Shown piece after piece: positions 2,300-62,287 of a stretch of DNA of 64,000 bases. Each line of letters begins with the position of its first letter. Position 1 is the first letter of the stretch. The stretch comes from a virus: the UHGV virus genome UHGV-1440165, one strand, 5' to 3'. The position numbers and the translations under genes are program-made. The notes under the pieces were generated by a model. It made no database searches. It saw only the letters and a program-made list of their open reading frames with translations, and was not told where the DNA came from.

Positions 2300-4210
2300 A
2301 TGTCCAACAAAATTGATATTGAACGCAAGTACAAGAAGCTCACTCACGTTGAGCATATCCTACTCCGCCCAGAGCGTCATCTGGGCAGTATTCGTTCGTC
2401 TGTGGGGACGGTCTGGGTGTATGACCCAAACAAAGACAAAGTCATCTTCCGTGACAACTTTGAGTACTCCCCCGCGCTGATCAAACAGTTTGATGAAATC
2501 ATCACCAACTGTGTCGACCACAGCAAGACCCCTGAGGGCAAATCCCTGACGGAAATCACTGTCACGGTTTCCCCTATGAACGGTCAAATCATCGTTGCTG
2601 ACAACGGGGGCATCCCTGTGGTCAAGCATGGTGTCACCAATGAGTGGCTCCCTGAGATGTTGTTTGGCTCGCTCTATGCGGGCAGCAACTTCAACGATGA
2701 AGACGAAGAGTACAACAACCAGAAGTCCGGCGGCCAGAATGGTGAAGGGGCTTCGTTGGTCAACGTGTTCTCAAAGTGGTTCCGCGTTACGACCAACGAC
2801 GGCAAGAAATCTTATGCTCAGACGTTTGAAGACAACATGAGCAAGAAGTCTAATCCGGTCATCAGCAACATGAACAGCCCTGGCACTTCCATCGCATGGA
2901 TCCCTGATTATGCTCGCCTGGGCGTCAAGGGGCTTGACCAGAACAACCTGCTCATGATCTATCGCCGCGCATTCGAAGTCGCTGCATGCAACCCGCGCCT
3001 GAAGATTGTGCTCAACGGCAAGCAAATCCGCATTGACCGCTTTGGCCATTTTGTTGATTACTTCTGTGCTGGCTCCGCTGTCGATGAAACCGGGGACTGG
3101 TCTGTTGCTGTAGCCCCTTCATCCGGTACGTTCATGCATGCTTCATACGTGAACTCAATCGCCACCCACATCGGTGGTCCGCACGTTGATTATGTGGCTG
3201 ATCAGATCGTGGCGGCGATTCGTCCTCAGCTGGTTAAGAAGTTCAAGACTGAGCTGAAGCCAGCGATGATCAAGAACCACATGTCCTTGTTCATCGCTGC
3301 CGACATCAACAACCCGCGCTTTGATAGCCAGACCAAGGAGCGCATGACGACTCCTGTCAGCCAGTTCGGTACATCCTACAAGCCCAGCGATAAGCTGATC
3401 CGCAAGGCGCTGGAGTTCGTTACAGCTGGCCTGAGCAAAGAACTGGCGGCTCTGCGTAATGACCAGGATGATGCCGAGTTTGAAAAGGCCAAGAAGGATA
3501 TCAGCAAGCGCGATTACCGTGAGATTGAGAAGTATTACCCGGCGACTGCCCGTGGCGATCGTAGCGGATGCTCCCTGCTGCTGACTGAGGGTGATAGTGC
3601 CTCCAACCCTATTCTGAACGCCCGTGACACTAAGAAGATCGGGTTGTTCCCACTTCGTGGTAAGTTCATCAACTGCCTGAACGCCCCGCGCTCAAAGGTG
3701 ATGGCGAACGAAGAGTTCAAGAACCTGTGCACAATCCACGGCGGCGCAGTACCCGGTCAGCCGCTTGACATCAGCCGCTATCCACAGACTGTTGTGGCTA
3801 CCGATGCGGACGATGACGGCATTCACATCCGTGGTCTACTGATCACCTTGTATTGCACCTACTGGCCGGAGTACGTCCGTCAGGGCAGGCTCAAGCTCCT
3901 GCGCACCCCTTACATGCGTGTGTGGTGTGGTAAGGTGATGCATGAGTTCATGAACAACGCTGAGTATGAGGAATTCCTGAAGACACCTGATGCCAAGAAG
4001 ATCACGAAGAAGAAATATCTGAAAGGTCTGGGCGGTAACAGCACTGAAGACTTCAAACGTATTCTAAACAACCTGGATGCGTATACTACGACGGTCACGC
4101 TGGACGACGGCTACAAACAGTCACTGAAGAATGGCTTCGGTGATGAGGCCGCCGATTACCGCAAAACCTGGTTTAGCGATGTTTGCCTGTTTGAAACCGA
4201 GGATGAATAA
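2300..4210 (+). CDS. 39: DNA topoisomerase II large subunit (GyrB-like ATPase/TOPRIM; T4 gp39 plus gp60-equivalent in one ORF)
   Basis: 636 aa; GHKL ATPase region (DNGGGIPV), TOPRIM region (LLLTEGDSA ... ATDADDDG); length consistent with a fused gp39+gp60. Confidence 0.9.
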   Translation: MSNKIDIERKYKKLTHVEHILLRPERHLGSIRSSVGTVWVYDPNKDKVIFRDNFEYSPALIKQFDEIITNCVDHSKTPEGKSLTEITVTVSPMNGQIIVADNGGIPVVKHGVTNEWLPEMLFGSLYAGSNFNDEDEEYNNQKSGGQNGEGASLVNVFSKWFRVTTNDGKKSYAQTFEDNMSKKSNPVISNMNSPGTSIAWIPDYARLGVKGLDQNNLLMIYRRAFEVAACNPRLKIVLNGKQIRIDRFGHFVDYFCAGSAVDETGDWSVAVAPSSGTFMHASYVNSIATHIGGPHVDYVADQIVAAIRPQLVKKFKTELKPAMIKNHMSLFIAADINNPRFDSQTKERMTTPVSQFGTSYKPSDKLIRKALEFVTAGLSKELAALRNDQDDAEFEKAKKDISKRDYREIEKYYPATARGDRSGCSLLLTEGDSASNPILNARDTKKIGLFPLRGKFINCLNAPRSKVMANEEFKNLCTIHGGAVPGQPLDISRYPQTVVATDADDDGIHIRGLLITLYCTYWPEYVRQGRLKLLRTPYMRVWCGKVMHEFMNNAEYEEFLKTPDAKKITKKKYLKGLGGNSTEDFKRILNNLDAYTTTVTLDDGYKQSLKNGFGDEAADYRKTWFSDVCLFETEDE

Positions 4211-4211
4211 G

Positions 4212-4658
4212 ATGGAATACCCGCTAACTCACCAGATACAACCAACAGCCGACACGTGTATGTCAACGTGTCTGGCGATGTTGCTTGATCGCCCGGTTGC
4301 CCAGGTTGCCGAAACTTGGCATGAAAGTTTCGCAAATTGGGAAACCACTATCGGTGATGTTCTTTGTATGGAGGGGGTTCCGTTCTTGTACGGGAAGGGA
4401 ATCAACCAAACCGCCACCATATATCATGATTATGTCTATCTTCTTTGCGTGCCAAGTCCGGCAACACCAGGAATATTGCATCAGATCATTATGGATACCC
4501 GAGGCGACAAAGTTGTCATACACGACCCACTGAAGGGTACTGGTAAAAGATACTACACCCTGGATGAAGACGACAAATCTCCTCTGGCGGTGAAACTTGA
4601 AACTTGGGTGGTGGACTACATTGTCGACCCGTATGAAGTAGGAGGTTATCGTGGGTAA
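4212..4658 (+). CDS. Hypothetical protein with C39/papain-like cysteine peptidase motif
   Basis: Q-x6-CMSTCLAML matches the C39 active-site signature (Q..C...CLxM); downstream His/Asp candidates (VVIHDP); GGAGG-like SD 9 nt upstream of ATG 4212. Confidence 0.35.
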   Translation: MEYPLTHQIQPTADTCMSTCLAMLLDRPVAQVAETWHESFANWETTIGDVLCMEGVPFLYGKGINQTATIYHDYVYLLCVPSPATPGILHQIIMDTRGDKVVIHDPLKGTGKRYYTLDEDDKSPLAVKLETWVVDYIVDPYEVGGYRG

Positions 4659-5991
4659 GATGGTTGCCAAGAGCATTACTGTAACGGACTTTGTCAACAC
4701 GGACCACAAGGAGTTCTCGGTGGTCAACAGCATCCGTCAAATCCCTCAGCTGATTGACAGCCTCAAGCCAAGCCAGCGCAAGATCCTCTTCGCGGCTCTT
4801 GAGTACAACAAGGAGGAGATTGTTGACCGCCTTGGTATGTTCGCCGCCGCCCGCACGAACTACAAGTCTGGTGGCGAGAACATGAGCGGCACTATCGTGA
4901 ACATGGCTCAGGGCTTCCCAGGTACGAACAACATCCCGTACTTCGACCGCGATGGCCAGTTTGGTTCTATCATGGGGCGCGAAGCGTCGTCGGCTCGTTA
5001 TATTTCGGTTGCTGTATCTGATGTTATCCGCAAGATCTTCCGTAAGGAGGATGAGGGTATCTTGGAATACAACTACCTTGGTGAAGAGAAACTGGAACCG
5101 AAGTTCTTCCTGCCCATCCTTCCCATGTTCCTGGTGAATGGCATTAACGGTATCGGCTCCGGTTATGCCACCGACACCCCGTGCCATTGTGTTAAGTCCG
5201 TGCTGAACGCCCTGAGAGCACTTCTCCGTGGCGATAACCCGACGGACTTAAAACCGTACTGGAACGGCTACAAAGGAGAGACAGGCTATACTGAGGAAGG
5301 AAGAGCATACAGTCGCGGCATCTTCCGTCGCGTCAATGCCACGACCCTGCATATCACCGAAGTCCCAGTGGGCTGGTTCGCCAAGACCTATGAGACCAAG
5401 GTGTTGCTGCCTCTGTATAAGGCTGGTATCCTCACTGAGTACGCCAACGACACGACTGAAGACGGCTGGGACATCACCGTTGTGTTCAAGCGGGGCGAGC
5501 TGTCTAAGCTGGATGACGATCAGGTTGAGCAGATGTTCAAGTTGTACTCTGCTAACAAGCCTGTTTGGACAGCCTGGGATGAAGACGGTGTTATCCATCG
5601 CTATTCGGGTTGGCAGGATATGCTGCTGCCGTTCTTCAACTATCGCCTTTCCCGCTATGAAGACCGCCGCCAGTACATGCTGAAGGATATGGCCGACAGG
5701 ATCAGCAAGCTGGGTGACCGGGCAGTGTTCATTGAATGGGCGACGCGTGTTGATCTCCGCCAAAAGATTGATGTGCTGAAGTCTCTGTTCATGCAGGATT
5801 ACCCAGACTTCGGTGGTGACCTTGACGAGTTGTTCAAGATGCCGCTGTCATCAATCACCCTGGATGCTCGTGAGCGGCTGCTCAAGCAGATAGAGAACCT
5901 TGAAGCACAGCACAAGGAATTAAGTAAGAAAGAGGACATTGACCTCTACAACGAAGACCTTGATGACCTTGAAAAGGCTCTTGGTCTGTAA
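4651..5991 (+). CDS. 52: DNA topoisomerase II medium subunit (GyrA-like; T4 gp52)
   Basis: SVVNSIRQIPQLIDSLKPSQRKILFAALE and GyrA-like breakage-reunion region; ORF-track start 4651 is GTG, ATG at 4660 is the likelier start. Confidence 0.9.
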   Translation: MGKMVAKSITVTDFVNTDHKEFSVVNSIRQIPQLIDSLKPSQRKILFAALEYNKEEIVDRLGMFAAARTNYKSGGENMSGTIVNMAQGFPGTNNIPYFDRDGQFGSIMGREASSARYISVAVSDVIRKIFRKEDEGILEYNYLGEEKLEPKFFLPILPMFLVNGINGIGSGYATDTPCHCVKSVLNALRALLRGDNPTDLKPYWNGYKGETGYTEEGRAYSRGIFRRVNATTLHITEVPVGWFAKTYETKVLLPLYKAGILTEYANDTTEDGWDITVVFKRGELSKLDDDQVEQMFKLYSANKPVWTAWDEDGVIHRYSGWQDMLLPFFNYRLSRYEDRRQYMLKDMADRISKLGDRAVFIEWATRVDLRQKIDVLKSLFMQDYPDFGGDLDELFKMPLSSITLDARERLLKQIENLEAQHKELSKKEDIDLYNEDLDDLEKALGL

Positions 5992-7944: not shown

Positions 7945-8336
7945 TGCGCAAACCCGTTACCGAGGAGATGCTGGCGAAAGCCGCTCTCCGCCCCAAAGAG
8001 AAGTTTGCATTCTTCCCAGTACGCTTGCATGACGGAAGCTGGATCTGGCTCCAGCCGTATGTTCGTGCTCCTATCGGCCTGTATGCAAACTGCGAGTCCG
8101 ACATTTTCGAATATGCAGCCTTTGCGAGAGGGGAAATCCCTGCTGTAGAAAGGAAGTATACTCTAAAGCAGTATCGAGTTGGCGGTGATTGGGCTGATGA
8201 TGGGGAATACTTTCCACATCGAAACTTCAGAACCTTCGACAACTCATACCAATCCGTGGATTATGCTTCTGAGTTCGGAAGGACTTCACTGCAGATCCTC
8301 TTAGAAAAGGCAGGAGAAATCGATGTACAAGTCTAA
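7941..8336 (+). CDS. Hypothetical protein
   Basis: 131-aa ORF. Confidence 0.4.
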   Translation: MMRKPVTEEMLAKAALRPKEKFAFFPVRLHDGSWIWLQPYVRAPIGLYANCESDIFEYAAFARGEIPAVERKYTLKQYRVGGDWADDGEYFPHRNFRTFDNSYQSVDYASEFGRTSLQILLEKAGEIDVQV

Positions 8337-8955
8337 CTTCCTTGCAGTGGCCGACAGTGAAACCCTGGGGCGCTGGGATGATGCTGTCATGCTGTCATGG
8401 GCGCATACCATCGCAGATCTGACCAAGCGTTATACTCTCCAACAGCTGGTCGAAGAGCGCACGACGTTCATTAAGCTAGACAGCAGAGAACAACTTGAAC
8501 TCGGTCGAGTAAAAGACCAAGGGACGGTTGAATGGTGGTTTGGCACGGGCAAACGCAATCCGTGTGATGCCGCTCGTGCTGTTAGTTTGTTCCCGAGAGA
8601 AGGTGATATCTCTGTCTTCCAGCTGGCTGACGAAATCCGCAAGGGTTGTCATCGTCTTGGGGTGGACCCGCGCTCGGTTGACTGGTGTGATCGTAACTTG
8701 TTCGACCTGCGCAAGGCTCAACACATCATTGAGGTGACGTGCAAGCAGGACTCCAACGAGCCATGGGATTACCACCACACCTTCGACATCGTGAGCTGGC
8801 TGAAGGGCGTTGGGCAGCAGGACCGCTATGCTGGCATCAAGGCATGGGAACTGGAAGGCATGGTCTATCATGATCCTCGTTATGACGCCGCGCTTGACTG
8901 GCTGCGTATTCAGAAGACCATGGAAGATCTGATGGGGCTGGAGGTGAAAGAATGA
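8323..8955 (+). CDS. dexA: DEDDh 3'-5' exonuclease (T4 DexA-like exonuclease A)
   Basis: Exo motif I AVADSETLG, VEWWFGTGKRNP and H-x4-D (HDPRYD) resemble T4 DexA (IIDFETMG ... MEWW). Confidence 0.65.
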   Translation: MYKSNFLAVADSETLGRWDDAVMLSWAHTIADLTKRYTLQQLVEERTTFIKLDSREQLELGRVKDQGTVEWWFGTGKRNPCDAARAVSLFPREGDISVFQLADEIRKGCHRLGVDPRSVDWCDRNLFDLRKAQHIIEVTCKQDSNEPWDYHHTFDIVSWLKGVGQQDRYAGIKAWELEGMVYHDPRYDAALDWLRIQKTMEDLMGLEVKE

Positions 8956-9254
8956 TATTCTTCACAGTTATTGGCGCTATCGTAACAGCTGGGGTGTTCG
9001 CAGCCATATTGGGCTACCTGTACTTCATGTTCCTTCATCCGTTATTTCAGGCGTTCAGTCTCACGAATTGGTACTTGACCTGCCTAAAGGCCGACGGCGG
9101 CGTGAACATGGCCTCTCTTCCTTACTGGCGGCTGGTGGCGCATTACTACACGGTCGGTGGCTGGCCTGGGGAAAGGACATGGAACTCTATCGGTGAGTGG
9201 TATGGAATAGGTCGATGGCGTATATTCCCAGATGATGAAGACAAAGCCCCGTGA
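8952..9254 (+). CDS. Membrane protein, hypothetical
   Basis: Two hydrophobic helices at the N-terminus; 100 aa. Confidence 0.45.
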   Translation: MIFFTVIGAIVTAGVFAAILGYLYFMFLHPLFQAFSLTNWYLTCLKADGGVNMASLPYWRLVAHYYTVGGWPGERTWNSIGEWYGIGRWRIFPDDEDKAP

Positions 9255-9263
9255 GGGGCTTTT
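9245..9263 (+). terminator. Rho-independent terminator
   Basis: agcccc-gtga-ggggct hairpin followed by TTTT. Confidence 0.6.
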
Positions 9264-9317
9264 CTATATCCGGGATAGAGTATCATTGGTTCACCAACGA
9301 ATCCTCGGGAAACTGCT

Positions 9318-9530
9318 ATGACAATCGCAAGAAGTTACAGAAAGAACTTCAACATCGAAGGGATTGAGTTCTATCACCATTATGCTCAGGACGCCCATGG
9401 CACTGTATGTAACACATACATGCTTGACGGTCGTCCTGTGAGTTCAGACGAGTTCCATCGTGTTCTGCGTGAGTCTACAGAAGAATCCCTTCCGTACATC
9501 ATCAACGCCAACGGATTGATTAAACCATGA
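9318..9530 (+). CDS. Hypothetical protein (first gene of coupled operon)
   Basis: 70-aa ORF, stop overlaps next start. Confidence 0.4.
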   Translation: MTIARSYRKNFNIEGIEFYHHYAQDAHGTVCNTYMLDGRPVSSDEFHRVLRESTEESLPYIINANGLIKP

Positions 9531-9823
9531 CAGACAAAGAGATCATTCAGGTGTGCATCAGGCTGAAGACTTTGAAGCCTCTCTTGCAAGCGCTGCGGTT
9601 CAATGCCATTAAGTTTGAGAAACTGCCTCGCACTGCCGCAACGTACTTTGCCATGAAGTCGGTCGGCGGTGCTATCTTCTTCGAGCACGACATTTACTTC
9701 TACACAAAACTGGATGGCAAAGATTTAGATGATATGGTATTTGCCAACGACTCCGGCGACACCATGAAAACGAAAGTTGAAAATGAGCTTCGCCGTATCA
9801 ATGACGGCCTGAGAGGGATGTAA
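9527..9823 (+). CDS. Hypothetical protein
   Basis: 98-aa ORF, translationally coupled. Confidence 0.4.
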   Translation: MTDKEIIQVCIRLKTLKPLLQALRFNAIKFEKLPRTAATYFAMKSVGGAIFFEHDIYFYTKLDGKDLDDMVFANDSGDTMKTKVENELRRINDGLRGM

Positions 9824-11316: not shown

Positions 11317-11876
11317 TGGCAGGAATTGTAAAGTACCTGGGCGACCCTCACCTTGGGCACAAGAAAATCTTCAAGCCCCGTGGATTCGATACCCAAGAGG
11401 CGCACGATGCTGCAGTCATCGATACGATCTTTCAGGGGCTGAAGTCCCGGGATGTACTGGAACTCGCAGGTGACATCTGCTTCATCGGGGCTGAGGGGTT
11501 CATCCGTCTGATGCGCGAGGGTGCCAAGCGGAATATCGACGAGTTTAAGCGCCGCCCGGTTCCCGATGATTGGCGTCCGAACTTTATCATCAGGGTGGCA
11601 CAGGGCAACCATGACAGCTTCAAGATGTTGTTGCAGCTGTATCAAGAGGGATGGATTAGCTCCTTCGGTGCCATGTACGAGCGTGACACTTCGGTTGGTC
11701 GTGTGTTGACGACGCACGTCCCTTATCAATTAGACCGCTGGGCGTATAATATCCATGGACATCTTCATGACAAACTCCGTGAAGAACGTGAATACCTGAA
11801 CTGCAGCTGGGAACAATTCAAGCGTCCCGTGACGCTGGCCGAGCTGCTCTATACCAATCTGGGGATTGAATTATGA
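11316..11876 (+). CDS. Calcineurin-like metallophosphoesterase
   Basis: Motifs GDPHLGH, QGNHD, HGHLHD. Confidence 0.6.
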
Positions 11877-12259
11877 CACAAAAAGTTCTTTTGAAGGTCT
11901 ATGTTGGAAAGGGTGAGAAGATCACCTTCGACAAGGCCGAATCCTACAAGCAAACGCCAAAGTTGCTGAAGGATATTGTCTTCAACTGTGATCGTTATGG
12001 CGACCGCTACCCGAACAAACAGGTTCGGATCGAAGACATGATGAAATTTAACGTCGGTTTTAGCAGTTCCCCTTCTTCTGGCTGCGTGTATTGCTTTGAA
12101 GAAGATCTCGAAGAGGCCAAGAAAATCTTGGTGGATGTCATCAACAAGCGCGTCCAGGGCATGCTTAACCGTTTTAAATTCGATGTTGAAGAGCATAACC
12201 GACAGACAGCAAACGCTGAAGGTGTGCAACGGATCAAGCTGGAGTGGGAGATTTTATGA
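11873..12259 (+). CDS. Hypothetical protein
   Basis: 128-aa ORF, coupled. Confidence 0.45.
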
Positions 12260-12627
12260 TCATTGCAGTGGATTTTGATGGGACTTGTGTAACCCACGAG
12301 TACCCAAAGATCGGGCGGGACATCGGTGCTGATGCCTGCCTGAAGAGGCTCTTTGCCAAAGGGCATCAGCTGATTTTGTTCACGATGCGTTCTGGTGCGG
12401 AATTGGAGCAAGCGAAAACATGGTTCCATGTCCGTGGCATCCCTCTGTATGGAGTTAATACAAACCCATCGCAGAAGACTTGGACGGAGTCTCCAAAGGC
12501 ATATGCCCAGGTTTACATCGATGACGCCGCTCTTGGCTGTCCTCTGATATGGGATGAAGTTTCCAATCGCCCCTACGTGAACTGGCCAGAGGTGGAACGC
12601 ATGTTGAAGAAGAGAGATATATTATGA
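12256..12627 (+). CDS. HAD-superfamily phosphatase-like protein
   Basis: HAD motif I DFDGT, motif IV YIDDAALG; ATG 12256 overlaps upstream stop (ATGA). Confidence 0.55.
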   Translation: MIIAVDFDGTCVTHEYPKIGRDIGADACLKRLFAKGHQLILFTMRSGAELEQAKTWFHVRGIPLYGVNTNPSQKTWTESPKAYAQVYIDDAALGCPLIWDEVSNRPYVNWPEVERMLKKRDIL

Positions 12628-12962
12628 AAAAGCCGCGCATCACAGGACATCAACTCTTTGTTCTTTGCGGGATAGAGAACTTTGAGAAAGGTCATCGCCG
12701 TTATGGTGAATGGTACTTGCATCCCAAGTCCTGGGCCAATGACAAGGGAAACACCGTCTGGACTTTCCAGGTATGTGCGAACGCTGGTGGGTTCACCTCC
12801 GTCAAAGGCGACCCATGGGATACCCGCACTGGGGCTTCCCTGTTGGCCAAGGGTCTGATCGAACCAGCTGGCTCGATGGTCCATGACGGTTCGTATGCGA
12901 ACTGGCCGAACACTGAGGTGACGTTCTACCGTCTGACCGAACTCGGCAAGTCTTACCTCTGA
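12624..12962 (+). CDS. Hypothetical protein (last gene of operon)
   Basis: 112-aa ORF followed by a terminator. Confidence 0.45.
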   Translation: MKKPRITGHQLFVLCGIENFEKGHRRYGEWYLHPKSWANDKGNTVWTFQVCANAGGFTSVKGDPWDTRTGASLLAKGLIEPAGSMVHDGSYANWPNTEVTFYRLTELGKSYL

Positions 12963-12986
12963 ATAAAGAATTAGCGGTTATTGAAG

Positions 12987-13010
12987 AAGGGGGAGTATAT
13001 ACTTCCCCTT
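12987..13010 (+). terminator. Terminator hairpin
   Basis: aaggggg-agtatatact-tcccctt stem-loop followed by T-rich sequence. Confidence 0.5.
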
Positions 13011-13032
13011 AGTTTATTAAGAGGAACAGGAA

Positions 13033-13380
13033 ATGACCCCATTAAAAGATATGTACGAGCGCCTTGCTGAACTGCAGGCGAAGGAAAAGCGCTTCTCTGA
13101 GGAAGAGGCAGAGTTATCCGAGCTGAATGCTCTGATCGCCACTCGTGAGAAGTATCTTCAACGTTACATCAACCACCCACCTCACATTGTTGAGCGTGTG
13201 AACGTTGAACTGGAAACCCTGTCCCCAATCACGTATGATAAATTGGGTATGGATAAAGTCCACACGGCTATCTCTGGTGTTGTGAACTCTATGGTGGCGT
13301 TGGGGCAGGTATTTGGTCGCGCCGACCATGACGACCTGTTGTTCTACATAGAACGAAACGTGAGGTTGGACCGCCCATGA
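13033..13380 (+). CDS. Hypothetical protein
   Basis: 115-aa ORF. Confidence 0.45.
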   Translation: MTPLKDMYERLAELQAKEKRFSEEEAELSELNALIATREKYLQRYINHPPHIVERVNVELETLSPITYDKLGMDKVHTAISGVVNSMVALGQVFGRADHDDLLFYIERNVRLDRP

Positions 13381-13877
13381 TTAAGCCTCGTATGATGTTT
13401 GCGCATATGCGCTCGGCTCATGCATACGCTCTGTCCAGCTATGCTCAGCGCCTGAAGGTTGGCTGTGTTATCGTTGACCCAAATATTGACCAACCTGTTG
13501 CCATCGGCTGGAATGGAACCGCCCCCGGCGCTCCCAATGTATGTGAGCAGGAAATAGACGGTCAGCTGGTAAGTCTTGAAAGTGTTATCCATGCTGAAGA
13601 GAACGCTCTGGATAATATCCAAAAGGCTCGCATCGGGCTTGTGATGTTCGTGACGCACAGCCCCTGCCCAAGATGTACGAAAAAGATAATCGAAAGTGGC
13701 AATATCGACAAGGTGTTCTACAACGTTCCGTACCGCATTACAGACGGTATTGTTGAGATGATGAACGCTGGGATTGAAGTTTACCGTATGGTCGACCAAT
13801 ACGCCGTCGCCAGACATTGTTTTGACGCTGAAGGCAAATTAATATCCGTTCCGGTTTTATTGAACCCTGACAAGTAA
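13377..13877 (+). CDS. cd: dCMP deaminase (T4 cd-like)
   Basis: Zinc-binding HAEENA and PCPRCTKK motifs of the cytidine/dCMP deaminase family. Confidence 0.8.
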   Translation: MIKPRMMFAHMRSAHAYALSSYAQRLKVGCVIVDPNIDQPVAIGWNGTAPGAPNVCEQEIDGQLVSLESVIHAEENALDNIQKARIGLVMFVTHSPCPRCTKKIIESGNIDKVFYNVPYRITDGIVEMMNAGIEVYRMVDQYAVARHCFDAEGKLISVPVLLNPDK

Positions 13878-56643: not shown

Positions 56644-56997
56644 TTACGACAGCTGCTTCAGTTTGTAGATCGTCTGATAACACAGCGTCTTGATTTCATC
56701 AAGCGTGTTCTGAAGGTGGGAGTCACACTGCCTGTAGATGCCATCGACGTCTATCACCACGCTGTTGACATAGGAGATAGGGTCTGGGTTATAGAGCTTG
56801 ATGTTCTCAAACGACGGAACGTACTGGCCACCCGCACCGATGTATGCTTCGGTAAACGTGTCCAGCAAGTCCTCCAGTTCCCCGTAGAACTCCCCGAGAG
56901 CTTTGTGCTTGGCGTAGGACGTTGTAACGAAGTGCAGGGCATGAGAGTGGGCTATAGCAAGCAGTCCACGGTTGATGAAAATACTCGCGTTAACCAT
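56644..56997 (-). CDS. Hypothetical protein
   Basis: 117-aa ORF. Confidence 0.45.
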   Translation of the reverse strand: MVNASIFINRGLLAIAHSHALHFVTTSYAKHKALGEFYGELEDLLDTFTEAYIGAGGQYVPSFENIKLYNPDPISYVNSVVIDVDGIYRQCDSHLQNTLDEIKTLCYQTIYKLKQLS

Positions 56998-57086
56998 GAT
57001 TTGTTTCCTGTATTGTGAACCATCTAGTATTTAGTGTTAATGGGTCCATGAGGTACTATATAGAATAATATAACTGGAGAACGAAA

Positions 57087-57692
57087 ATGAAAACTTTTCA
57101 AGACTTTCTGACCGAAGCCGCGCCGCCGATGTTTGTTCATATCAAGGCAGACAAGATCGGCAAATCCACCGAAGACAATATCGGTACTTTCTTGCGAGTT
57201 AGTGTTAGTGGCGACAAAGCCACCTTTGAAACCCCTGACGGTCGCAAGATAATCCTGACGGGTGCTAAAGACATCATCTCGGCATCTGGCCTGAAAGATG
57301 GGCAGTTTGCCAGTGCCCAGATGATTGACAAGGTTGATACTGACACCGCTGTCAAGTACAACAAATCAGGCAAATATATTGACTTGTTGGATGTCAAATC
57401 AGGTATGGGTAATTCCTTTATCTCCATTGACGGTAACAAGCAATGGAAAGAAATGACCGAAGGTGGTTGGTATGCGTATAAAGGCGGTCGCCCCGGCTTG
57501 GCTCGTTATAAGATCGCTATGGTTATGGGACCTCATGCGGGTATGCCATCTCCTGGGGAAGATATTGAATACGAGTTACCGAATGGCGGCAAAGAACGCG
57601 GAACCGTCATGAAACTGAATGGTGCATCCAAGCTGATGGATGTCAAAAACGAAAAAGGTAAGAAAGTACAAGTCAGTATGTATGTGAAATAA
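57087..57692 (+). CDS. IP-like internal head protein candidate
   Basis: N-terminus MKTFQDFLTEAAPP matches the T4 IP capsid-targeting consensus and the 99-329 N-terminus; Lys/Gly-rich 201 aa. Confidence 0.5.
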   Translation: MKTFQDFLTEAAPPMFVHIKADKIGKSTEDNIGTFLRVSVSGDKATFETPDGRKIILTGAKDIISASGLKDGQFASAQMIDKVDTDTAVKYNKSGKYIDLLDVKSGMGNSFISIDGNKQWKEMTEGGWYAYKGGRPGLARYKIAMVMGPHAGMPSPGEDIEYELPNGGKERGTVMKLNGASKLMDVKNEKGKKVQVSMYVK

Positions 57693-57697
57693 CAAAA

Positions 57698-57722
57698 CCC
57701 CGCGAAAAGCGGGGTTTATTTT
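57698..57722. terminator. Bidirectional rho-independent terminator
   Basis: ccccgc-gaaaa-gcgggg hairpin flanked by A and T runs. Confidence 0.65.
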
Positions 57723-57752: not shown

Positions 57753-58322
57753 CTACACAGGCTTGACGCCGAGGAACTTGGCGATATCAGCAGCCAGGTT
57801 TTTACCCTTGCTGATGTCGTGTTCTTTACCGCCGACAGTAACGATTACATATGGATCGTCTTCACCGCCGAAGTTCACAGACACAGCCTTACCATGGCCA
57901 GGGATGCCAGAGTATTCGAACTCAGTACGACCACTCTTGCGAGACTTGCCAACACCCAGTGCTTTACCGATCATCTTGTCCATGTTCGCCAGTTCCTGAG
58001 CATAGGCTTCAGTCACCTGGCCTTTGTCAGCAGACTTGCCAAAGAAGAATTCGAAACCGTCATGGACAGCAACGACTTCCTGACCTTGGGAGATACCGTG
58101 AGTCTGGTCTGGGGTCAGTTTCACCTTGATGGTGTTGCCGTTGGTTAACTCCAGGTTGTAGACATCCGCCTGATTGTCAGGAGTGATCTGGGTCACGGTA
58201 GCACCGGAGCACCACTGAGTGCCATCGGCCTGTTTGGTGATGGATACGCTTTTGCCTTGGACACCAGCATGGGTCTGAGGCTGTGCAGCTTGCTCTTTAA
58301 AATATTCGATAAAAGGTTTCAT
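57753..58322 (-). CDS. IP-like internal head protein candidate
   Basis: ATG 58322 gives MKPFIEYFKEQAAQP (capsid-targeting-like) with GAGGAGA SD; Gly/Lys-rich. Confidence 0.45.
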   Translation of the reverse strand: MKPFIEYFKEQAAQPQTHAGVQGKSVSITKQADGTQWCSGATVTQITPDNQADVYNLELTNGNTIKVKLTPDQTHGISQGQEVVAVHDGFEFFFGKSADKGQVTEAYAQELANMDKMIGKALGVGKSRKSGRTEFEYSGIPGHGKAVSVNFGGEDDPYVIVTVGGKEHDISKGKNLAADIAKFLGVKPV

Positions 58323-58394
58323 TGGATCTCTCCTCGGGGATTTAGATGTAATTAGCCCCCGGAGGGGCTTTATTCTGTTCAAGACCAGCTAGTT

Positions 58395-60398
58395 TCACCA
58401 AACATTCAGAAATAGTGCATGACCCATACCGCCGTTTGACTGAAGAGACCATTTTCCTGTTTCTCTTCCCAGGCGTTCTATGTTGTTGAGTTGGTTTATC
58501 GACAATTCAGAAGAGTCGAATAATACCACATCACGTTTTTTGGGTTCTCTCAAATAAGGTCCGAGATCAATATCAATCATCCGGTTTATAAATTCTACTA
58601 CTTCGGCTTGTTTCTTTGGTAATGTGATATCCGGCCTGTTTGTCACTTTCTCCAAGCGTCTATTTTCTGCGCTTATCATGGACAGCATAATTTGTGTAAC
58701 TTTGCCGTCAGACAAGTTGTAATCGTTCCAAATCACTTCACCTTTATCCGTGATGGTTATATCATTCAAGAAAACCTGGTTTGGGTTGTATGTCTGACTT
58801 TTCAACTGTTGGAGGTTTCTGGAAAGATATTCCATTTTTGATGAGATTTCATCGATCATGGATTGAACAATATCTTTCTTCAAAGTAAGTTCATAGGTCT
58901 TCGGATTGTTCAGGGTACGCCCTTTCTGGGAGACAATTGGGGTGAATGCAACTTTGCCTTTGTCATGATAATAGGTTACGTTGGTTATCATAGAAGTACC
59001 GGCATATTTTCCGGTTTCAGGGAAATTGATTCCAGACCAAGTGATGGACATGCCGTTCTCTGTTTCCCCGAACACTGATGCGTTTTTCGGGATTCGCAGA
59101 TCTTTAGAACTGATTGCATTTGGATTCGGTTCTGCTGCTTTCGCCTGAGGAGCCAACTGATCGATAGCACCCTGTACCACTCCAGTCAATTTGGATGGTT
59201 TGGTGATGTCGATGTCACGGATTACGATAGGCTGGCCGATGGTTTGCCCACCAGGTCCCAATTCTGTAACTGCCTTGACTGTCAAGACAATCGGATCACT
59301 CCCTTTGATGATGCCACGGTTGATTGTGGCCACCACTGCAGATTTACCGCCGAATGTCAAGCTACCAGAGGCCATTGTCATAGAGGATACGCCGCGAAGA
59401 TCATTCACTTTGTAGAATGCGTTCACCAGAGCACGCCAGCGGTCTGTTGTGAGTTCGGCTGCCGTGGTTTGAGCAGGAGCCACAGCCCCAACGCCAAATT
59501 CAACATAAGCCACAATCTTACCACCAGACTTCAGTTCCCAACCCATGCCCTGGCGGTCAGAAGCCGCCATGATTTTGCGATCCACTTCCCCACGACCAAC
59601 ATACTCTTTGTCGAACACAGTTACCTGGGCGATGGTTTGGGTGCGGGCAATCTTCGCCATTGCGCCATCTTTGACCATGATGGCCAGGTCGTTGGAACTC
59701 AGAGTCACATCGTTGGCACCGACCACCTTCACAACAGAACTGAAGATGCCGTTGGATTTTGCCATGACGGAAATGTTCCAGTCTGGATTGTTGGGCGAAG
59801 CCCCCACATCCGGAGTATTGTTCTGAACCGGAACGTCGCCGACCTTGTCTGGATCATCCCAGGTGATGCCCTGCATCTTCGGACCGTCGAATACCTGAGC
59901 CGGATCTTTGCCCTTGCGGACCAGCCACACATAACCACGGTCAGGGACAGGCGCGTAAGTCAGGTCCATGACGTTCAGTTTCTGTTTCAAACCAGACTGA
60001 CGGATGATCTTTGGAATCAGGGTCATACCGCGATCCAGGGCTTTCTTGGAGAAGTTCACAGCATAGCCATCGATAGTCTTGCCAAGAGGAGTCGCCATGA
60101 ATTGTTTGGTCGCTTCGATCATGGAGGCGATGACGCGCATTGGGTTCTTGAAGCGAGCAATAGCGTCAGGGTAGACGGAGCCGCGCTTCTGGCCTATGAA
60201 GACCTGGCGGACATTCTTGCCCAACCCCTGTGGGGTATAGAACTGGATGCGGTATTCTTTTTCATCTTCGTCGATGAAGGTGAAGAACACATCGCCTGCG
60301 TTCTTCTTGCCCATGGTCAGCTCATACGGAGCGGAGTTGAACGCTTCGTCCAACTGATCTCTTTCCTGCATGAACTGGAGGAAACTTGGCTTTGACAT
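58395..60398 (-). CDS. Large hypothetical protein, possibly virion-packaged
   Basis: 667 aa; N-terminus MSKPSFLQFMQERDQLDE has L-x-E sites reminiscent of prohead-protease targeting; no catalytic motif identified. Confidence 0.5.
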   Translation of the reverse strand: MSKPSFLQFMQERDQLDEAFNSAPYELTMGKKNAGDVFFTFIDEDEKEYRIQFYTPQGLGKNVRQVFIGQKRGSVYPDAIARFKNPMRVIASMIEATKQFMATPLGKTIDGYAVNFSKKALDRGMTLIPKIIRQSGLKQKLNVMDLTYAPVPDRGYVWLVRKGKDPAQVFDGPKMQGITWDDPDKVGDVPVQNNTPDVGASPNNPDWNISVMAKSNGIFSSVVKVVGANDVTLSSNDLAIMVKDGAMAKIARTQTIAQVTVFDKEYVGRGEVDRKIMAASDRQGMGWELKSGGKIVAYVEFGVGAVAPAQTTAAELTTDRWRALVNAFYKVNDLRGVSSMTMASGSLTFGGKSAVVATINRGIIKGSDPIVLTVKAVTELGPGGQTIGQPIVIRDIDITKPSKLTGVVQGAIDQLAPQAKAAEPNPNAISSKDLRIPKNASVFGETENGMSITWSGINFPETGKYAGTSMITNVTYYHDKGKVAFTPIVSQKGRTLNNPKTYELTLKKDIVQSMIDEISSKMEYLSRNLQQLKSQTYNPNQVFLNDITITDKGEVIWNDYNLSDGKVTQIMLSMISAENRRLEKVTNRPDITLPKKQAEVVEFINRMIDIDLGPYLREPKKRDVVLFDSSELSINQLNNIERLGRETGKWSLQSNGGMGHALFLNVW

Positions 60399-60443
60399 TT
60401 TATATCTCCTGATGGGAATATGGCGGTTTCCCTTAATTAGCGA

Positions 60444-60927: not shown

Positions 60928-61003
60928 GGTGTAGTTCCTTCGTTTCAAGTTGGTGTCGTACTGCTTATGTATTGAAGTATAGGGAAGGTTATTGAAGAAG
61001 TAA

Positions 61004-61024
61004 AGGGGCAAAAGCCCCTTTTAT
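61004..61024. terminator. Bidirectional terminator hairpin
   Basis: aggggc-aaaa-gcccct stem-loop followed by TTTTA. Confidence 0.55.
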
Positions 61025-61034
61025 TGAATTATTT

Positions 61035-61673
61035 TTACGGTGTTGGGTTCACAACAGGAATATGGAATCTGATTCCAGCGATGATGTCCTTCAGCTGAGG
61101 TTTCCAGCCAGCCACCAAGCGAGGGAGAGCGACAGAACCGGGCTGAACTAAAATGATGTCGCTGCCTGTGATGTTGTGCTGAGGGAATTGGGCAAGATAT
61201 TGCTCCATTGTGACGCCCGGATCAATCAGAACAGGACCAACATCAGATGATGCATAAGTCGCACCCAGACCGTCAACACCCCATGCCAAGATACCCCAGT
61301 CAGGGATGTTGGCTTCAGATGTGATGGTGAACCCAAACACGGTGTTCAGCGAGGTGAAGGAGTAGACGTCGTGAGTGATGTCATACACCAGATACCCCTT
61401 GGCCAGCATATCGGCAAAGATCGCGTCTGTGTCTCCCGCCGCTGGAGTCGGTACGGTAAACAACAGCTCACCAGCCGGAGGAACAGGATACGTGCCGAGG
61501 GCATAGAGGCACCATGCGTCAATGCACTTCTTAATGAATGTCTCTGACGCCACATAATCGGCAAGGCGAACCGTGCCTGAGTACTCGGATACGATGATGC
61601 CTTCCTTCGCGCCCTGTAGAGCAATGAAGACCAAGATATGTTCATATCCGGTCTGGGATGGAGTGATGTTCAT
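61035..61673 (-). CDS. Hypothetical protein
   Basis: 212-aa ORF. Confidence 0.5.
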   Translation of the reverse strand: MNITPSQTGYEHILVFIALQGAKEGIIVSEYSGTVRLADYVASETFIKKCIDAWCLYALGTYPVPPAGELLFTVPTPAAGDTDAIFADMLAKGYLVYDITHDVYSFTSLNTVFGFTITSEANIPDWGILAWGVDGLGATYASSDVGPVLIDPGVTMEQYLAQFPQHNITGSDIILVQPGSVALPRLVAGWKPQLKDIIAGIRFHIPVVNPTP

Positions 61674-62287
61674 TATCTTGTCCTCTTCAGTTTCTCTATT
61701 GTGCGCTTGTTCATGGCGATCACCTGAGGGTCCACCTCAGAGATTGAGCGCCCTTTGAAGGACACACATTTCTGAAGATATTTAGCTTTCTTCACGACGT
61801 CAGCAGCATATGCATTGGACGCAGAATTACGGGCGAAGCCAGCATTGTACGAGGAGAGGGATTTGCGGACATTCTGTTTGTGATAGGTCAACCAGAACTG
61901 CATCTCATCGAGGGCGGCCTGAGCAGCATATTCCTGATCAGTCAGCAGCTTGACAGCAACATTGGCATAACACTTGCGATTCTTACAACCTTCGCGATCA
62001 CCAACAGTCTTCACCTTATTCTGAAAGGCTCCCATGTTGGCCGCCTTGAGGCCGTATCGCATTGACACTACATCTTCACCAGCGCGGCTCTCTCGCCAGG
62101 ATATGGCAGCCAGGGTGTAACCAAGATCTTGTGTCTTGCCTATGTGATAGGCAGTTGCCAGCGTATTAAGTTGTTGCTCAGAGAAATCATAAACACATTG
62201 ACTTGTATTTTGGGAAGCGTGCACATTCCCGCTGGCAATGGTAAAGGTCACGGATAAGGCCATGGCCTTCAACGTTGTCATCGTCAT
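61673..62287 (-). CDS. Secreted lytic transglycosylase-like (SLT domain) protein
   Basis: Signal-peptide-like N-terminus; SLT-type motifs ISWRESRAG, MGAFQ, SYNAGF. Confidence 0.5.
   Translation of the reverse strand: MTMTTLKAMALSVTFTIASGNVHASQNTSQCVYDFSEQQLNTLATAYHIGKTQDLGYTLAAISWRESRAGEDVVSMRYGLKAANMGAFQNKVKTVGDREGCKNRKCYANVAVKLLTDQEYAAQAALDEMQFWLTYHKQNVRKSLSSYNAGFARNSASNAYAADVVKKAKYLQKCVSFKGRSISEVDPQVIAMNKRTIEKLKRTR

Follow-up and report, generated by a model that had tools for sequence, protein, structure and literature searches.

The recognition motif of the T4 prohead protease gp21 is L/I-x-E| (the bar marks the cut). In T4, gpAlt is located in the scaffolding core at ~40 copies, loses a small N-terminal peptide to gp21 and is injected; gp21 also trims small N-terminal peptides off the internal proteins (IPs) IPI–III, which are core-located and later injected (PMC9958956). 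Head-packaged injected proteins and modular virion-borne effectors are already established (Alt, IPs, MuF fusions, polyvalent proteins; PMC5512222, PMC9503650), and the polyvalent-protein literature does not count members of the Alt/VIP2 clade as genuine polyvalent proteins (Iyer et al. 2017, PMC5512222; PMC9503650). Here we analysed a 667-amino-acid (aa) protein encoded in a 64,000-nucleotide (nt) stretch of UHGV virus genome UHGV-1440165 (the window). A first-pass annotation made from the sequence alone had proposed this protein as a large, packaged and injected effector of the Alt type. We consider it probable that the protein is a major internal virion protein on the plan of T4 Alt, without the enzyme. 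It is most likely an Alt-like head-packaged protein, in which an array of swappable non-catalytic modules takes the place of the enzyme.

The window is a genome piece of an Agtrevirus (Ackermannviridae), a Vi01-like phage, and shares ~92–95% nucleotide identity with Shigella phages MK-13 and ChubbyThor, and Salmonella phages SKML-39 and pSal-SNUABM-02. The open reading frame (ORF) is confirmed where the first-pass annotation had placed it: it lies on the minus strand, starts with ATG and is preceded by AGGAG, and an in-frame TAA 42 nt 5' of the ATG means that its start cannot shift further 5'. The product has a computed mass of 73.6 kDa and an isoelectric point (pI) of 9.2. Its length is close to that of T4 Alt (682 aa), as had been claimed, and the gene is present in a single copy in the window. 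The gene and the parts of its product, with approximate cassette boundaries, are as follows.

58395..60398, minus strand: complete coding sequence, 667 aa plus stop, from the ATG at 60398 to 58395
60406..60410, minus strand: Shine–Dalgarno sequence AGGAG, 8 nt 5' of the ATG
60345..60398, minus strand: leader, residues 1–18 (MSKPSFLQFMQERDQLDE), a predicted helical propeptide ending in L16-x-E18, followed by A19
59829..60344, minus strand: conserved basic alpha/beta domain (N-domain), residues 19–190, with the Alt-type N-terminal non-catalytic fold; presumed prohead-loading module
59778..59828, minus strand: acidic Pro/Asn-rich linker, residues 191–207, at the border of the conserved and variable parts
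59469..59777, minus strand: cassette B, residues ~208–310, independently present or absent in relatives; structure poorly predicted
59124..59468, minus strand: cassette C, residues ~311–425, with a predicted helix (318–331), four strands (341–393) and a long helix (401–421)
58641..59123, minus strand: cassette D, residues ~426–586, predicted as an antiparallel sheet and a long helix, with two short strands and another helix after them
58398..58640, minus strand: cassette E, residues 587–667, of which residues 591–664 (58407–58628) are Ip9-homologous

Comparison with T4 gpAlt (667 versus 682 aa) shows that both proteins have an N-terminal domain of ~170–190 aa with the same predicted fold and similar sequence, and a short leader ending in L/I-x-E, in register. 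Both are found in virions, and the gene of each lies outside the main head-gene cluster. The 667-aa protein differs in carrying four non-catalytic cassettes where Alt has its ADP-ribosyltransferase (ART) domain (PF03496, R-S-E), in the length of its leader (18 residues versus 6 in T4 Alt), in sequence (~21% identity) and in a seemingly much higher abundance in virions than the ~40 copies of Alt. Its likeness to the T-even IPs (IPI, Ip5–Ip12; Ip9 of RB15, K3 and IME08) lies in residues 591–664, which are homologous to mature Ip9, and in a plastic locus, where a neighbouring ORF has a canonical capsid-targeting sequence (CTS). However, the IPs are free-standing proteins of 8–20 kDa with their own 10-residue CTS, whereas the IP-like module here is the last cassette of a 73.6-kDa protein and is carried by an Alt-type domain. 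Because it has neither the catalytic domain that defines Alt nor the small size and the CTS that characterize the IPs, we place the 667-aa protein in neither family.

Other described systems share single features with it. As in polyvalent and MuF-fused effectors, a virion-incorporation module is fused to fast-evolving, interchangeable modules delivered with the DNA, but the 667-aa protein lacks MuF and the defining enzymatic domains, and its carrier is the Alt N-terminal domain. As in the ejection or inner-body paralogues of phiKZ-like and SPN3US-like phages, some relatives (Vibrio phage YC) have paralogues sharing an N-terminal region, with T4-like prohead protease processing, but we found nothing in those families that matches the 667-aa protein in sequence or fold, and the gene here is single in the 64-kb window. 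Unlike Hoc-like proteins, it has no Ig-like Pfam matches, and its cassettes are mutually unrelated in sequence and contain long helices.

The protein belongs to phrog_3867, a family found in essentially all enterobacterial Ackermannviridae, and its orthologues include Sajous1 gp214, EspM4VN gene 182, ChubbyThor gp130 and Det7 gene 73. Phage Det7 releases its DNA in vitro when exposed to LPS. The first-pass annotation had named virion proteomics as a check of its proposal. All virion evidence presented here comes from the published proteomes of orthologues rather than from this phage. Gp214 of the Kuttervirus Sajous1 is syntenic with the 667-aa protein and 88% identical to it over the first 190 residues. 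It is listed as 'tail completion protein' with 196 spectra in CsCl-purified virions, in which more spectra were recorded only for the major capsid protein (924) and VriC (311) (PMC10892097). Gene 182 of the Agtrevirus EspM4VN encodes a protein with 72% identity overall and ~95% over the first 400 residues. This was the sole protein in band 5 of a Coomassie-stained sodium dodecyl sulfate polyacrylamide gel (SDS-PAGE) of purified virions, with 28 peptides extending from residue 32 to residue 545 of 546 (PMC7283392 Table S3); the protein is thus essentially full length in the particle. Orthologues of the 667-aa protein are therefore abundant in the purified virions of two phages; absence from virions, with assignment to a structural family, had been named as what would refute the first-pass proposal. 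The homologue in Dickeya phage XF4 is labelled 'unknown structural protein'. In AG3 virions, SDS-PAGE gave a band of 60.4 kDa (PMC3121705), which is the size expected of the processed 573-aa AG3 homologue.

That the protein is a polyprotein, processed at internal L/I-x-E sites into fragments the size of IPs, was ruled out by the EspM4VN data: the gene 182 product ran as a single band between the 65-kDa and 50-kDa markers, with peptides along the whole chain, one of which crosses the I-D-E44 site uncut.

In databases the family is labelled 'hypothetical', apart from a few records that read 'putative tail completion protein'. Together with the presence of the protein in virions alongside TOBE-like and ferritin-like proteins, the latter label would fit a tail completion or tail-associated protein, forming part of a proposed 'ferrojan horse' operon for iron/molybdate entry, gp214–217 (PMC10892097; FrontPhageNews, Guerrero annotation). 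We regard this as highly improbable, and the label as wrongly applied to this family. There is no Pfam, PHROG or NCBIfam similarity to tail completion families (T4 gp3/gp15 or others), and gp146 and gp168 of Sajous1 are already annotated as tail completion proteins. The TOBE/molybdate-binding similarity of the neighbouring ORF at 57753..58322 is sub-threshold (Pfam, E 0.009), and no TonB or FeoB dependence was found in the Sajous1 report (PMC10892097). All of the positive homology that we found points to head-internal proteins.

The N-terminal L-x-E sites noticed in the first-pass annotation are present, as M-Q-E12 and L16-D17-E18|A19, and the AlphaFold (AF2) model has a helix at residues 6–19. 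At the position of L16-D17-E18-A19-F20, the motif [LIVMF]-x-E-[AS]-[FL] is found in 89 of the 93 family members, with the E located 4–54 residues from the start and a free middle residue (T, N, D, L, K, V, Q, A, S, G, C, M or E). The L-x-E site is invariant or nearly so in divergent members, and is the most conserved feature of the family. Profile alignment with hhalign placed L16-D17-E18|A19 on I4-T5-E6|L7 of T4 Alt. The start of the protein, MSKPSFLQFMQERDQLDE|A, is only loosely like the 10-residue CTS MKT[YF][QK]EF[IL]xE|A, and does not qualify as an IP-type CTS.

The peptide coverage of EspM4VN gene 182 bears on cleavage at this site. In theory, trypsin yields 18 peptides of 11 aa or longer from this protein; 16 were seen, and the missing two (1–13 and 14–31) are the only ones upstream of or across the cleavage site; the chance that two randomly missed peptides are exactly these is 1 in 153. 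The mass spectrometry (MS) search was strict-trypsin, and the peptide starting at Ala19 is semi-tryptic and so invisible to it. Cleavage at LDE|A would leave a peptide from Ala19 with the sequence AFNSAPYELTMGK (AFNSAPYELTFGK in Sajous1). From these data we infer cleavage at LDE|A, which the missing N-terminal peptides fit without proving it. Genes for a head maturation protease and for prohead core and scaffold proteins are part of Ackermannviridae genomes (PMC10892097 Table 5).

In an alignment of 48 homologues, the N-terminal 190 residues are nearly invariant and the remainder is highly variable. The N-domain (residues 19–190) has a net charge of +7 and a pI of 9.5. Its AF2 model, built from a 64-sequence alignment, has a predicted local distance difference test (pLDDT) score of 87.9 and a predicted template modelling (pTM) score of 0.80, with elements in the order helix, four strands, helix, strand, two helices, two strands. 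A Foldseek search of predicted viral structures (BFVD) with this model returned the family itself first, and then Alt proteins at probability 1.0, from Aeromonas phages phiAS5 and 50AhydR13PP, Escherichia phage HY03, Shigella phage SP18 and Acinetobacter phage Henu6 (query-normalized TM score, TMq, 0.58–0.61, root-mean-square deviation ~4 Å over 171–184 columns, E 1.7e-6 to 8e-5). The E-value jumps from 2.6e-4 to 9e-3 after rank 41. Proteins named deaminase-domain and ParB/sulfiredoxin were also found by Foldseek to contain the N-domain.

Alignment of the domain profile with residues 1–198 of T4 Alt by hhalign gave 173–177 collinear columns and set the two protease motifs against each other (E 1.3e-4 local, 2.2e-6 global; probability 54–78%), at the ~21% identity given above. 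At 34.1, the score lies ~7.7 standard deviations above that of 40 column-shuffled controls (13.2 ± 2.7, maximum 21.1); reversed Alt and other parts of Alt scored ~10. For a wider Alt profile, a search for homologous proteins gave four matches for the T4 Alt N-terminus and none for a Vibrio phage YC paralogue. Residues 19–190 thus have the predicted fold of the T4-type Alt N-terminal domain and a weak but significant sequence similarity to it.

The occurrence of the domain was examined by a phmmer search of 1.84 billion representative proteins with residues 1–195, which gave 90 clusters. In every cluster protein (280–1677 aa), apart from one 50-aa fragment, the domain is N-terminal. Most of the C-terminal parts behind it have no Pfam match. 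ADPrib_exo_Tox (PF03496), the Pfam family of the T4 Alt catalytic domain, was found in six members (E 1e-18 to 1e-9, compared with 5.8e-36 over residues 374–614 of T4 Alt), an anthrax-lethal-factor (LF)-like domain in one, and a DinI-like domain in one. A zeta-toxin fusion (Agrobacterium phage Atu_ph07) was rejected as a further cargo of the domain; it was seen with the full-length model and not with the N-domain model.

Several records contain the carrier domain more than once or on its own. Vibrio phage YC (MH375644; Ackermannviridae) has three paralogues, at 3769–5862, 7977–9725 and 11832–13730, which have the Alt-like N-domain and L/I-x-E|A site in common and unrelated C-terminal parts. 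Other Vibrio phage records have two places each for carrier-domain genes. These sequences point to an expanded carrier family in marine Ackermannviridae. In T4 (NC_000866, 5066–5451), the record describes alt.-1 and alt.-2 as the beginning of gene alt, duplicated long ago, and thus the Alt N-terminal module was duplicated independently of the ART domain in T4 itself. BFVD lists 'split' Alt proteins (Henu6) and N-domain-only proteins. Pfam PF26846 is the family to which Alt N-terminal fragments are assigned.

No ART is recognizable in the 667-aa protein, in agreement with the first-pass annotation. Searches for a catalytic domain gave no match in Pfam (E <= 0.01), NCBIfam or PADLOC, a single-sequence search of the PDB gave none, and the T4 Alt ART domain had no tblastn match in the window. 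A TAF1 bromodomain match in a family-profile search of the PDB (E ~0.01) was judged spurious. An injected enzyme may nevertheless be imagined whose catalytic domain, a cryptic ART, nuclease or peptidase in cassettes B–D, is too divergent to be recognized. The ART and LF-like metalloprotease domains on relatives with the same N-domain are in keeping with this idea, and residues 182–342 are modelled poorly enough to hide a fold. We consider it improbable, given the lack of any match by sequence or profile in Pfam, NCBIfam, PADLOC or the PDB beyond the spurious one. Moreover, the cassettes are only ~80–160 aa each and can be lost individually, and outside the N-domain only P619 and D623 are invariant in the 48-homologue alignment. 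The term 'effector' in the first-pass annotation is accordingly not established, the cassettes having no assignable catalytic or binding activity.

The variable part of the protein is built of cassettes of mostly ~100–120 aa (~80–160 aa in this protein), which pairwise mapping shows to be individually gained and lost. The homologues form a ladder of lengths (541, 654, 767, 873, 980 and 1090 aa) with recurrent breakpoints. Self-BLAST of the 667-aa protein and nine longer homologues revealed no internal repeats, and cassette-to-cassette hhalign of profiles gave probabilities of <=4%; the cassettes are thus not detectable duplicates of each other. Cassette B is 93–95% identical in Vi01, PhiSH19 and other Kutterviruses. 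Cassette C has 75% identity with the homologues in Limestonevirus (Dickeya) and is missing from most Kutterviruses. Cassette D was found in 240 phage records (Salmonella, Klebsiella, Escherichia and related enterobacterial phages) at 30–96% identity. Within the full-length model, the mean pLDDT of which is 62, cassette D is predicted best (pLDDT 80–94), and prediction is poor between residues 182 and 342. A Foldseek search of the PDB with the full-length model gave weak Whirly, PUR-alpha and CapZ-like matches (E > 3e-3), which we treat as a lead and not as a result. The N-domain and cassettes B–D are basic (pI 8.8–9.5).

Cassette E connects the protein to the IPs. Residues 591–664 align with residues 17–89 of RB15 Ip9 with 36% identity over 74 aa (E 3e-11), which covers the whole mature part of Ip9. 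The cassette also matches phrog_7673 'internal head protein' (E 2e-8), and by tblastn it matches annotated ip9 genes in T-even phages (RB15, IME08, VR20). Cassette E is therefore homologous to the T-even internal protein Ip9.

A high copy number and a beads-on-a-string architecture, in which the number of ~100–120-aa modules varies and total length ranges from 541 to 1090 aa, are also what would be expected of a Hoc analogue, a decoration or fibre on the capsid surface with a capsid-binding N-domain and a variable number of exposed adhesion modules. This seems to us an improbable explanation, since the N-domain matches that of Alt, an internal protein, core proteins typically have such a leader and conserved protease site, and one cassette is homologous to an internal protein. 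The modules are also basic, with long helices, and have no Ig-like or other adhesion matches in Pfam. We favour the head interior instead, because three independent lines converge on it: the Alt-type carrier domain, the core-protein-type leader with its cleavage site, and the IP-type cassette.

On the model of T4 Alt and the IPs, the protein would be loaded through its N-terminal module, trimmed, and ejected with the DNA. In such a scheme, the leader and Alt-like domain would co-assemble the protein into the prohead scaffolding core, and a gp21-like protease would then cut off residues 1–18 at LDE|A, giving a mature protein of ~71 kDa. The basic mature protein would remain in the DNA-filled head and, on infection, would exit through the tail along with the DNA. 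The variable cassettes would then act stoichiometrically rather than catalytically, binding host targets or the incoming hypermodified DNA; a cassette might, for example, block restriction or defence nucleases, as T4 IPI* does. This stoichiometric anti-defence or DNA-escort role is a guess, and the most economical one that we can offer because of the rapid turnover of the cassettes on an invariant carrier, the toxin-type cargo of relatives, the IPI* precedent, and the basic charge of the N-domain and cassettes B–D.

Some of the same evidence could be explained by a protein that is internal and not an injected effector, namely an abundant DNA-organizing or core-remnant protein (histone-like or inner-body) that stays in the capsid or escorts the DNA, with cassettes serving as spacers or DNA binders. 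High virion abundance, the basic N-domain and cassettes B–D (pI 8.8–9.5), the weak fold likeness to the ssDNA/RNA-binding Whirly and PUR-alpha proteins, and the absence of an enzyme domain in Pfam and NCBIfam all fit such a protein. We hold it to be unlikely, though deserving of serious consideration. The gain, loss and divergence of cassettes behind a near-invariant N-domain fit a host arms race better than housekeeping packaging, and relatives carry toxin-type cargo (ART, LF-like) at the same position. In addition, the Ip9-like cassette belongs to the polymorphic T-even IP locus, the characterized member of which, IPI, is injected. None of the four alternatives discussed here has positive homology support.

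The first-pass proposal of a large, packaged and injected Alt-type protein without ART is thus largely supported, through presence in virions, the Alt-type domain, the L-x-E site and the Ip9 homology; its placement within the head, and not on its surface, and its ejection into the host are steps that we infer. Several points weigh against our preferred reading of an Alt-like, head-packaged carrier of cassettes. The sequence link to T4 Alt is weak, with a probability of 54–78% obtained from a template profile of two sequences, and, as no solved Alt structure exists, the structural comparison is of one prediction with another. The missing N-terminal peptides are negative evidence, the new N-terminus itself not having been seen. 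The protein appears to be far more abundant than T4 Alt, which suggests a partly structural role. The only fold lead for cassettes B–D is the weak Whirly/PUR-alpha-like one (E 4e-3 to 3e-2), obtained with a model of low confidence. Lastly, the Vi01-like late-promoter motif CTAAATAcCcc was not found directly upstream of the 667-aa gene, and instead precedes the two genes downstream of it.

The features surrounding the gene are listed below, with the spectra recorded for the corresponding proteins in Sajous1 virions (PMC10892097).

57087..57692, plus strand: neighbour gene, 201 aa, starting with MKTFQDFLTEA, a canonical T-even capsid-targeting sequence; replaces Sajous1 gp216 (20 spectra)
57753..58322, minus strand: neighbour gene, 189 aa from the ATG at 58322, starting with MKPFIEYFKEQA; orthologue of Sajous1 gp215 (32 spectra)
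56644..56997, minus strand: ORF corresponding to Sajous1 gp217 (10 spectra)
61673..62287, minus strand: ORF corresponding to Sajous1 gp211 (31 spectra)
58354..58369, minus strand: GC-rich hairpin AGCCCC-TCCG-GGGGCT, just 3' of the stop codon of the 667-aa gene
58336..58345: CTAAATCCCC, resembling the late-promoter motif and preceding the gene at 57753..58322

The description of the flanking genes as IP-like holds for the canonical MKTFQDFLTEA of ORF 57087..57692 and for the MKPFIEYFKEQA start of ORF 57753..58322. The former compares with MKTFKEFINEA in RB15 Ip7 and MKTYQEFISEA in Ip9, and in tblastn the RB15 IPs matched the start of this ORF and nowhere else in the window. It is a sporadic accessory gene, found in 15 phage records. 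It also has a weak match to phrog_2667 'internal head protein' (E 0.038), and takes the place of the small gp216-type gene of Sajous1 and ChubbyThor. ORF 57087..57692 resembles a mobile accessory gene of the IP type, and its locus is plastic. The real start of ORF 57753..58322 is the ATG at 58322, not the TTG at 58382.

The terminators that the first-pass annotation had placed around the gene stood in part. A good bidirectional hairpin is located at 57695–57717, but the hairpin at 58354–58369 has a weak T-tail on the coding strand, and across the whole region the 16 hairpins found, compared with 9.0 ± 3.5 expected, are not strongly above chance. A further hairpin lies at 60999–61025, two small ORFs upstream of the 667-aa gene.

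ORF 56644..56997 encodes a DUF5856 or ferritin/Dps-like protein (phrog_858 'starvation-inducible transcriptional regulator'), with a late-promoter-like motif, CTAAATACT, upstream at 57026–57034. ORF 61673..62287 encodes a 204-aa protein with a signal-peptide-like N-terminus and a borderline SLT lytic-transglycosylase match (E 2.6e-4); its relatives are labelled 'RegB endoribonuclease', a label that looks wrong. ORF 61035..61673 (minus strand) is a full-length DUF7270 (E 1.5e-112), conserved beside the SLT-like gene.

In the literature searched, we did not find described the Alt N-terminal domain as a separable carrier of polymorphic cargo, the ART-less, cassette-bearing and highly abundant Alt-like version in Ackermannviridae, or the link of a cassette to Ip9. 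A broader hypothesis can be put forward, tentatively and with some doubt. The Alt N-domain with its L/I-x-E leader may be a general, portable prohead-loading adaptor, which delivers polymorphic cargo across Ackermannviridae, T4-like and other large myoviruses. Ackermannviridae would then inject a high-copy 'cassette array' of stoichiometric anti-defence modules, some common to the T-even IP locus, which are re-assorted by recombination at cassette boundaries.

The analysis provides a reasoned identity for a virion protein that ranks among the most abundant in Ackermannviridae, phages that are widely used in biocontrol and therapy, and that has so far lacked an annotation. It speaks against two labels in current use, 'tail completion' and 'ferrojan horse operon'. 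The N-terminal, non-catalytic region of Alt emerges as a separable and widespread module, always N-terminal behind a protease site, which leads to the hypothesis of a head-targeting signal. A review of the T4 head calls core protein localization 'mysterious' (PMC9958956). If the adaptor hypothesis is true, it would bear on how non-CTS proteins such as Alt reach the T4-type scaffolding core, and would offer a natural platform for packing foreign proteins into phage heads. If the cassettes are anti-defence modules, their variation would be a second host-range determinant beside the tail spikes.

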